8,648 nucleotides of DNA from a virus (lineage: Duplodnaviria > Heunggongvirae > Uroviricota > Caudoviricetes). The position numbers were made by a program, and so were the translations under genes. The stretch lies in IMG/VR virus record IMGVR_UViG_2671180417_000011; one strand, written 5' to 3'. This document shows, piece after piece, positions 4,508 to 4,957 of this stretch; within the stretch, counting starts at the first letter, position 1, and each line of letters starts with the position of its first letter. Under the pieces are notes generated by a model. That model was not told the DNA's origin. It saw only the letters and a program-made list of their open reading frames with translations, and ran no database searches.

Positions 4508-4632
4508 TCAGACTCCAACTGAACTTTTGCTATAAGAACACTCACGAAGAACGGCCTTTTATTGTGCTCAATACCACCGATGGTAAACCATTCGCCAAGT
4601 AGCCAATTCATAAAATGCCATTTCTAAATCCC

Positions 4633-4658
4633 CCCGGCTCCAGTGCCGGGTTTTATTT
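4633..4658 (+). terminator. Intrinsic terminator downstream of cI
   Basis: Stem cccggc (4633-4638) / gccggg (4645-4650), 6-nt loop, then ttttattt (4651-4658). Directly abuts the stop codon (4661-4663) of the convergent minus-strand ORF. Confidence 0.6.
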
Positions 4659-4660
4659 AC

Positions 4661-4882
4661 TTAATTACACAGTCGCATATCCTGAAGTAACACATCTATA
4701 GCTAACTTCACAGCGAGATCATCCAATTCATCATGGTGAAGCACTCGGATCATTCCCGCAATAGCATCTGCTGAAATAGCTTCCCCAGTAGCAATAACCT
4801 CAAGCAACGACACCCCTAGAATTTCGACTACCCGCTGGTGCAACACACCAAATTCCCCTTCGATTAACATGCAATCACCCAT
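4661..4882 (-). CDS. Hypothetical small protein (73 aa) convergent with cI, at the position lambda uses for rexAB
   Basis: ATG at 4882 with AAAGG 9 nt upstream on minus strand. Alternative starts: TTG 4927 (track, 88 aa) and ATG 4870. Product MGDCMLIEGEFGVLHQRVVEILGVSLLEVIATGEAISADAIAGMIRVLHHDELDDLAVKLAIDVLLQDMRLCN; no family recognised. Candidate extended -10 (TGaTATTTT, complement of 4905-4913) upstream. Confidence 0.45.
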   Translation of the reverse strand: MGDCMLIEGEFGVLHQRVVEILGVSLLEVIATGEAISADAIAGMIRVLHHDELDDLAVKLAIDVLLQDMRLCN

Positions 4883-4957
4883 AACAATCAGCCTTTCCCC
4901 CTTGAAAATATCACGCGGATACCACAAAAAATAAAATATTTTTGTTATCAGTCATTT

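Follow-up and report, generated by a model that had tools for sequence, protein, structure and literature searches.

A small conserved gene between the cI terminator and OL of enterobacterial lambdoid prophages and its predicted AriR-like product

The DNA between cI and PL of lambdoid phages is among the most studied phage DNA and is a known depot of lysogenic-conversion and defence genes. Lambdoid morons, such as bor and lom of lambda and sieB of P22, are autonomous promoter-gene-terminator units that are expressed from the prophage. On the host side, the dimeric connector YmgB/AriR activates the Rcs phosphorelay. The cI-to-N interval is a documented hotspot of prophage defence genes, with rexAB and BstA as examples, and lambda rexA-rexB, BstA of BTP1 and stk of 933W all lie in this accessory hotspot between the repressor and OL/PL (PMC8585504). 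Cargo of the rexAB type is placed on the cI strand, ahead of the cI terminator, and is co-transcribed with cI from PRM. YmgB acts via partner proteins, in the Rcs pathway and through SpoT (PMC10704370, PMC3509220), and its surface residue Arg74 in helix 3 is needed for the binding of SpoT (PMC10704370).

Here we describe a small gene in this interval of an 8,648-nucleotide stretch of Caudoviricetes DNA (IMG/VR record IMGVR_UViG_2671180417_000011), referred to as the window throughout its full length. The gene shares the repressor-to-OL/PL interval with rexAB-type cargo. However, it lies on the opposite strand, past the cI terminator and behind a putative promoter of its own, and in relatives it coexists with such cargo. 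The searchable literature yielded no description of the fixed PL-side position, of the separateness from cI-operon cargo or of an AriR-like fold. These three points would be new, whereas the hypothetical family and its PHROG (3946) were already known.

Layout of the immunity region and the small gene

The window contains the immunity region of a lambdoid prophage, in the sense opposite to the usual lambda map. The features are as follows.

3465–3689, minus strand: cro-like gene with an HTH of the YdaS/P22-Cro type (Pfam YdaS_toxin, HTH_3 and P22_Cro; phrog_35)
3726–3739, 3751–3764 and 3775–3788: OR, three operators ATAAC-N4-GTTAT (pattern search)
3800–4507, plus strand: cI-type repressor gene, HTH_3 and Peptidase_S24 (Pfam, phrog_4)
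4508–4632: non-coding spacer from the cI stop to the terminator, the empty cargo slot (comparison with relatives)
4633–4660, plus strand: intrinsic terminator of the cI transcript, CCCGGC-loop-GCCGGG followed by TTTTATTT (terminator scan)
4661–4870, minus strand: the small gene, 69 aa and stop; acidic product with a predicted three-helix fold like that of YmgB/AriR
4871–4882, minus strand: in-frame ATG 4882 and the SD-like GGGTGA (4875–4880) for ATG 4870 (read from the sequence)
4892–4901, minus strand: purine-rich GGGGGAAAGG, candidate SD for ATG 4882 or mRNA 5' end (read from the sequence)
4905–4913, minus strand: extended -10 element TGATATTTT, TG (4913–4912), A, TATTTT (4910–4905)
4926–4936, minus strand: T-tract TTTTATTTTTT over the -35 region, present in 10 of 11 loci and imperfect in L007
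4935–4948: weak fourth operator OL4 AATATTTTTGTTAT, one perfect half-site, 3 mismatches in 10
4958–4971, 4978–4991 and 5003–5016: OL3 (2 mismatches), OL2 (1 mismatch) and OL1 (perfect) (pattern search)
4991–5019, plus strand: putative PL, TTGCAC-17 nt-TATCTT, overlapped by OL1 and OL2 (read from the sequence)
5216–5521, plus strand: N-type antiterminator gene (phrog_271, E 7.6e-35; Pfam N_peptide weak)

The small gene is convergent with cI and divergent from PL. For the cro-like gene, the 74-aa start was adopted from the annotation of phage 06-3462. The operator pattern ATAAC-N4-GTTAT has 10 matches against 2.9 expected, a number reached in none of 200 shuffles. A promoter scan did not flag the putative PL; two relatives of the same immunity type, L044 and L093 (Stx1a_10051), have TTGACC-17 nt-TATCTT at this position, and homology to the N leaders of phage 21 and mEp235 extends from ~5020 onward. 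A search of Rfam with positions 4400–5300 gave only a sub-threshold potC match inside cI and no known RNA element.

In sequence comparisons, only the block 3125–5413 of the window proved homologous (97.6%) to PA28 and 06-3462, both Stx phages, and to a group of Stx1a phages. This 2.3-kb block takes in part of cII, cro, cI (97.6% DNA identity to the PA28-type immunity block), the small gene and OL/PL, and reaches two thirds of the way into N. Outside it, the replication genes and all DNA past 5413 are unlike those of the PA28-type phages and belong to another mosaic. The N protein of the window has 101 aa and that of PA28 has 112 aa, and their C-termini differ. Within the small ORF, the window and PA28 are separated by two substitutions, both non-synonymous (VS to GA), and a one-base indel in a C-run lies outside it. 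A segment of ~40–85 nt (CAGACGGTCCCGG..CCGGGTTAACCCAATCGGCTTCAGGCTGCTGCGGTTGG) is found once in the O-like replication gene and twice in the intergenic region between cII and O (2057–2142, 2829–2891 and 2923–2981), and a 16-nt tandem pair is located at 2885–2916. A duplication could account for the repeated segment, or it may be DNA of an origin or iteron type.

The original prediction, made from the letters of this DNA, placed a small ORF of 73–88 aa on the strand opposite to cI between cI and OL. The ORF is present at this place and ends at 4661 with the stop codon TAA at 4663–4661. Frames of both lengths exist, as the candidate starts are TTG 4927 (88 aa), ATG 4882 (73 aa) and ATG 4870 (69 aa). 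However, alignment of the homologues showed that they begin at a Met equivalent to ATG 4870. The TTG 4927 start was discarded because it is upstream of the conserved promoter with its extended -10 element, which makes a product of 88 aa not credible. By this alignment, ATG 4870 is the start common to the homologues and ATG 4882 is an in-frame alternative. The region 4871–4882 aligns with the leader GAGGGATT-N3-ATG of the homologues, and the ATGGGTGATTGC upstream of ATG 4870 aligns with the Shine-Dalgarno sequence and spacer of other members.

The small protein matches phrog_3946 at profile positions 2–67 of 67 (E 5.6e-30, 104 bits), a significant full-length HMM match that assigns it to PHROG 3946, whose function label is "unknown". 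Pfam, NCBIfam and PADLOC gave no match, in keeping with the first impression of an unrecognised protein. A profile search found 619 homologous clusters at 90% identity with members of 65–69 aa, and wherever the source names an organism it belongs to the Enterobacterales (Salmonella, Klebsiella, Citrobacter, Enterobacter, Escherichia and others). When 1.84 billion representatives were searched exhaustively with HMMER, only 63 families were recovered at 50% identity, and nothing connected the protein to a named family. The window allele forms a divergent sub-clade with the members P0009, P0010 and P0145, to which it is 61% identical; its identity to the main Salmonella/Klebsiella clade is 30–46%, with a different C-terminal tail.

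The gene is called hypothetical in all annotation sources, and the window allele (the same 341 bases), present in 50 of 5426 complete E. coli genomes, is hypothetical wherever it is annotated. It is unannotated in epsilon34, ST104, SPN9CC and the PA28 RefSeq record, and the annotated lengths elsewhere vary from 65 to 96 aa. One source names the protein 'Phage antitermination protein N', evidently an error. The name 'DUF2767', which one UniRef source applies to P0092, was not adopted, as no Pfam model matched any member and no paper mentioning it was found.

The omission of the gene from some databases (epsilon34, ST104 and the PA28 RefSeq record), together with the few truncated variants P0006 (48 aa) and P0340 (45 aa), would fit a chance or decaying frame, in which case the conserved DNA would be a non-coding part of the OL/terminator region. 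However, pairwise comparisons of 11 loci gave dN/dS values of 0.06–0.46, well below 1, with synonymous sites near or beyond saturation. A protein identity of 30–45% is kept where similarity of the DNA is undetectable, and the family alignment yields a confident AlphaFold model. The frame on which the original prediction depended is intact in 78 of the 80 IMG/VR loci retrieved. The substitution pattern refutes a decaying frame for practical purposes, so this explanation is effectively excluded and we give it next to no weight. Judged by the same pattern, the small ORF is a real protein-coding gene under purifying selection.

Gene order and the cargo slot

The gene order is the same in 11 of 11 inspected loci: N transcribed away from PL/OL on one side, the small gene transcribed away from PL/OL on the other, then zero to three cargo genes and cI pointing towards the small gene, followed by cro. 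The position of N may hold the first PL gene instead, and a hairpin usually lies between the small gene and the cargo. The inspected loci come from Stx phages, Salmonella MG40, S149/ST104, S107 and epsilon34, Klebsiella prophages, two Logan contigs and four genomes. An IMG/VR scan seeded with a main-clade sequence found 288 loci encoding a relative, of which 80 were retrieved for the locus statistics and 71 of these have at least 3.5 kb of flank. An opposite-strand cI-like gene is located 63–2595 nt (median 1047) past the stop of the small gene in 70 of the 71. A scan of genome contigs confirmed only 4 loci, a low number because the divergent window allele was used for confirmation. In about half of the IMG/VR loci, a strong hairpin is missing from the 45 nt past the stop of the small gene; in these, a conserved spacer of ~137 nt (GGATCTTTGTGGTTACAAGGTGGCGGGCAAATGG...) precedes the cargo genes, as seen at 5205–5340 of L025 (epsilon34) and in similar loci.

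According to the original prediction, the small gene is cargo in the position of rexAB. The comparisons of the relatives do not bear this out. The variable cargo is on the cI strand, between cI and the small gene and ahead of the terminator, whereas the small gene is separate from it on the OL side, and in the window the cargo slot at 4508–4632 is empty. Examples of cargo in the relatives are BstA (MG40 and S107), a P63C protein, a ParA-like protein, lipoproteins and a 98-aa membrane protein. The genes of the MG40 and S107 cI operons that are annotated as hypothetical (L003 2761–3684 and L005 3392–4159) encode BstA abortive-infection proteins, with PADLOC E values of 1.7e-124 and 9.4e-100, respectively. 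The spacer of the window (4495–4665) was also considered as a remnant of known cargo; this was rejected because it matches only PA28-type phages.

Grouping at 70% identity sorts the DNA-binding domains of the repressors beside the small gene into 19 groups. Among the phages that share the immunity of the window, L044 and L045 carry the main-clade allele of the small gene, and Stx1a_10051 (L093) is without it, with the order cI, a 98-aa gene, terminator and OL. The 98-aa protein of L093 (2059–2355) has a hydrophobic N-terminus and is encoded in the cI operon, where it replaces the small gene, making this phage a natural comparator with cargo present and the small gene absent. Thus, the 19 repressor groups and the absence from a same-immunity relative point to an optional, moron-like unit rather than an equivalent of rexAB. 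On these comparisons, the small gene forms a unit apart from the cargo slot, on the OL side of it, and is independent of immunity type and of cargo. As in lambdoid morons, it is optional and sporadic, lies between two phage operons, has a putative promoter of its own, predicted from sequence, and a hairpin past its stop, and is absent from some otherwise similar phages. It departs from these morons in its unusually constant location and orientation (70 of 71 loci) and in the high conservation of its protein across genera.

An optional and sporadic gene with its own promoter, resembling lysogenic-conversion morons and located in the hotspot that holds rexAB and BstA (PMC8585504), might serve the lysogen in superinfection exclusion or anti-phage defence. 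It may further be speculated that a protein with an AriR-like fold would activate Rcs, so that the resulting capsule blocks adsorption. However, the protein has no match in PADLOC, Pfam or NCBIfam and, in these collections, no similarity to RexA, RexB or any other described defence protein. The gene is outside the cI operon, where the cargo sits, and it coexists with real defence cargo (BstA) instead of replacing it. A soluble, acidic protein of 69 aa that has neither an enzymatic nor a membrane domain is unlikely to be a stand-alone effector, and its high conservation across genera is unlike that of fast-evolving defence genes. A role in exclusion or defence is therefore quite improbable.

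Promoter, operators and terminator

A Shine-Dalgarno sequence of its own and a candidate extended -10 promoter beside the OL operators had been predicted for the small gene, and the relatives support both. The motif TGNnAnnnT is present 27–38 nt ahead of the start codon in all 11 inspected loci, with a chance expectation of ~0.11 per locus (25–36 nt window). The extended -10 element reads TGCGATACT, TGCCATACT, TGATATGCT or TGCTATGCT in the relatives, and the distance from the element at 4905–4913 to the start codon matches that of the homologues. The motif is found in 62 of the 80 IMG/VR loci, and the 18 without it are mostly of the Klebsiella type. The Klebsiella-type loci L066–L087 have a different upstream region (110 nt) that has neither the T-tract nor the extended -10 element, and they share an inverted repeat TAAAC-N6-GTTTA ~80–95 nt ahead of the start codon, which suggests a different promoter or control in these loci. 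From the position of the -10 element in the window, the start site is predicted at ~4898. No -35 consensus is present ahead of the extended -10 element of the small gene. The T-tract that covers the -35 region is also found in L093, which does not have the small gene, and thus belongs to the OL module in this immunity type.

The promoter was originally described as abutting OL3. However, the operator that adjoins it is the weaker OL4 (4935–4948), and OL3, OL2 and OL1 are at or beyond -60 from the predicted start site. The half-site of OL4 is kept in L044 and L093 (AATACCTTTGTTAT), and we place its centre at ~-43 relative to that start site. The homology between the window and L093 begins at 4927 and takes in the A/T tract and OL4; OL4, being present in a phage that lacks the small gene, thus belongs to the OL module. 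The outward-facing half-sites GTTAT-N9-ATAAC at 4944–4962, also kept in L044 and L093, are read as the adjacent halves of the weak OL4 and of OL3, which gives a four-operator OL with spacings of 25, 20 and 23 bp.

The hairpin of the cI terminator (4633–4650) has 6 G-C pairs followed by TTTTATTT and folds with -13.4 kcal/mol on the plus strand. The stop codon of the small gene adjoins this terminator as predicted, but the two do not touch, as the hairpin lies 10 nt past the stop. It also folds well when read on the minus strand (-17 kcal/mol), where, however, the GGGGAUUUAG that follows it makes a poor U-tract. A hairpin that has no U-tract in the direction of the small gene makes read-through antisense to cI possible. 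The anatomy of the locus thus renders the two proposed consequences, expression in the lysogen and antisense transcription into cI, plausible. A 52-aa ORF (4453–4611, minus strand) begins just past the hairpin on the strand of the small gene and overlaps the 3' end of cI in antisense; its translation would require read-through of the small-gene transcript.

In lambda, cI bound at OR2 activates PRM from ~-42. The position of OL4 in the window raises the question of whether the small gene is a part of the genetic switch, with repressor or Cro at the weak OL3 and OL4 controlling its promoter. The control could be an activation in the lysogen with PRM/OR2-like geometry or a repression until induction, and the gene could act on the lysis-lysogeny decision through a protein that binds cI, RecA, N or a protease, or through a convergent transcript that interferes with the cI operon. 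Several observations are consistent with this: the perfect half-site of OL4 is kept in L044 and L093, its centre is at ~-43, HK022-type relatives have ATAGC-N5-GAATT at the position of OL4, the small gene is always beside PL/OL, read-through into cI is possible, and a promoter that has no -35 consensus is typical for activator-dependent promoters. The likeness to PRM/OR2 (a weak operator ~-43 from a -35-less promoter), and that to lambda OOP and coliphage 186 (transcription convergent on the repressor operon), is a geometric analogy only, and unlike in these systems many unrelated operator sets are found beside the small gene. The gene, together with its promoter core, accompanies 19 repressor specificities, so that a dependence on operators would have to be re-created at each junction. 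The presence of OL4 in a phage that does not have the small gene makes it a feature of OL that is no evidence of coupling, and OL4 has 3 mismatches in 10 positions. An analysis of words shared by OR and OL between -57 and -32, for operators near the promoter across immunity types, gave no significant result, and the sharing is within chance for AT-rich DNA. Furthermore, the small gene is dispensable in same-immunity phages, and the strong purifying selection on the protein opposes a purely antisense role. Taken together, a role in the switch appears unlikely.

Predicted fold and proposed function

The small protein has a mass of 7.5 kDa, a pI of 4.4 and a net charge of -8. Structure prediction, which had been proposed as a check of the product, gave a three-helix AriR-like fold. 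An AlphaFold model from a family alignment with divergent members has a pLDDT of 87 and a pTM of 0.73, with helices at residues 2–28, 34–44 and 52–62; the first model, made on a shallow alignment, had a pLDDT of 66, which the divergent representatives raised to 87. The model shows the three-helix fold of 2OXL (YmgB/AriR), so in its predicted form the small protein resembles YmgB/AriR of E. coli. The two proteins (PDB 2OXL and PF10798 for YmgB/AriR) have a similar folded-core size and three helices, are acidic and occur in Enterobacteriaceae, and both contain the motif (V/I)LGxA(V/L)..L...(S/T)G..(V/I)S with equal spacing. However, the phage protein does not have the 24-residue N-terminal extension of YmgB, and its gene is beside PL, whereas ymgB is in the BluR-controlled ycgZ-ymgABC operon.

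Comparisons of the sequences gave a weaker relationship. The PF10798 HMM matched neither the window protein nor five family members even at E<=10, whereas YmgB itself scores 90 bits. An hhalign comparison with the YmgB alignment gave a score of 17.6 and an E value of 0.012, with a probability of only 3.5%; the controls were all below this score (11.5–11.9 for reversed alignments and a maximum of 16.8 in 100 column shuffles), and the aligned segment is the VLGxAV...SG..V motif. In the sequence alignment, helix 3 of the phage family, D-L-A-V-(E/K)-L-A-I-D-V-L, has no conserved Arg and no obvious counterpart of Arg74. A profile search of the PDB sequences returned only USP28 with an insignificant E value of 1.4. 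Membership of the phage protein in the YmgB family by sequence is not established, and small three-helix folds can arise by convergence.

The reading that we tentatively prefer is that of an optional, moron-like gene with its own extended -10 promoter, encoding an AriR-fold protein that binds a partner, most plausibly a host regulator. As an accessory gene of the moron type, it would occupy the OL side of the hotspot that enterobacterial lambdoid phages have between cI and PL. Its transcription would start at ~4898 from the -35-less extended -10 promoter (4905–4913) and head toward the hairpin of the cI terminator, and its translation would begin at ATG 4870 and possibly at ATG 4882 too. The product, a strongly acidic three-helix protein that like AriR would not bind DNA, may serve as a small connector whose binding modulates a protein that is conserved across Enterobacteriaceae and is most likely a host regulator. 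Such a partner would explain the high conservation of the protein amid ever-changing phage neighbours. As no strong operator overlaps the core promoter, the small gene is probably made in the lysogen as well as in lytic growth.

The activity of the promoter, the timing of expression and the binding of the protein to a host target are what we infer for the moron-like gene from its anatomy and model. The location of OL4 near -43 may mean that the gene is coupled to the repressor rather than constitutive, and promoter activity in the lysogen, which opposes the cI operon, could be costly. The transcript STnc6030 of BTP1 was considered as an antisense RNA near bstA and was rejected because the paper puts it in the tailspike region. 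A search for transcriptomes covering a carrier prophage found none; the only prophage transcriptome that it yielded is that of BTP1 (PMC7067206), a phage absent from the tblastn matches, so these data have no bearing on the small gene. A more specific proposal combines the AriR-like connector with a promoter that is read by the immunity repressor via OL4, as PRM is via OR2, so that the protein is lysogen-specific and binds a component of Rcs or SpoT. This combination is very improbable; if true, Stx, P22-like and Klebsiella prophages would reprogramme the capsule, acid resistance, biofilm or stringent response of their hosts.

The analysis separates two things that had been conflated, the variable cargo of the cI operon and the conserved small gene on the opposite strand. 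The latter is carried by hundreds of prophages of Salmonella, Klebsiella, Citrobacter, Enterobacter and Shiga-toxin E. coli. Its small size, defined promoter and natural knock-out relatives make the question of its role directly testable, and if no phenotype is found the small gene would be one more conserved hypothetical. Should the AriR-like fold be a guide to function, these prophages may adjust the envelope-stress or stringent signalling of the host, and such an effect would bear on the fitness, acid tolerance and induction of pathogenic lysogens, and hence on the release of toxin.
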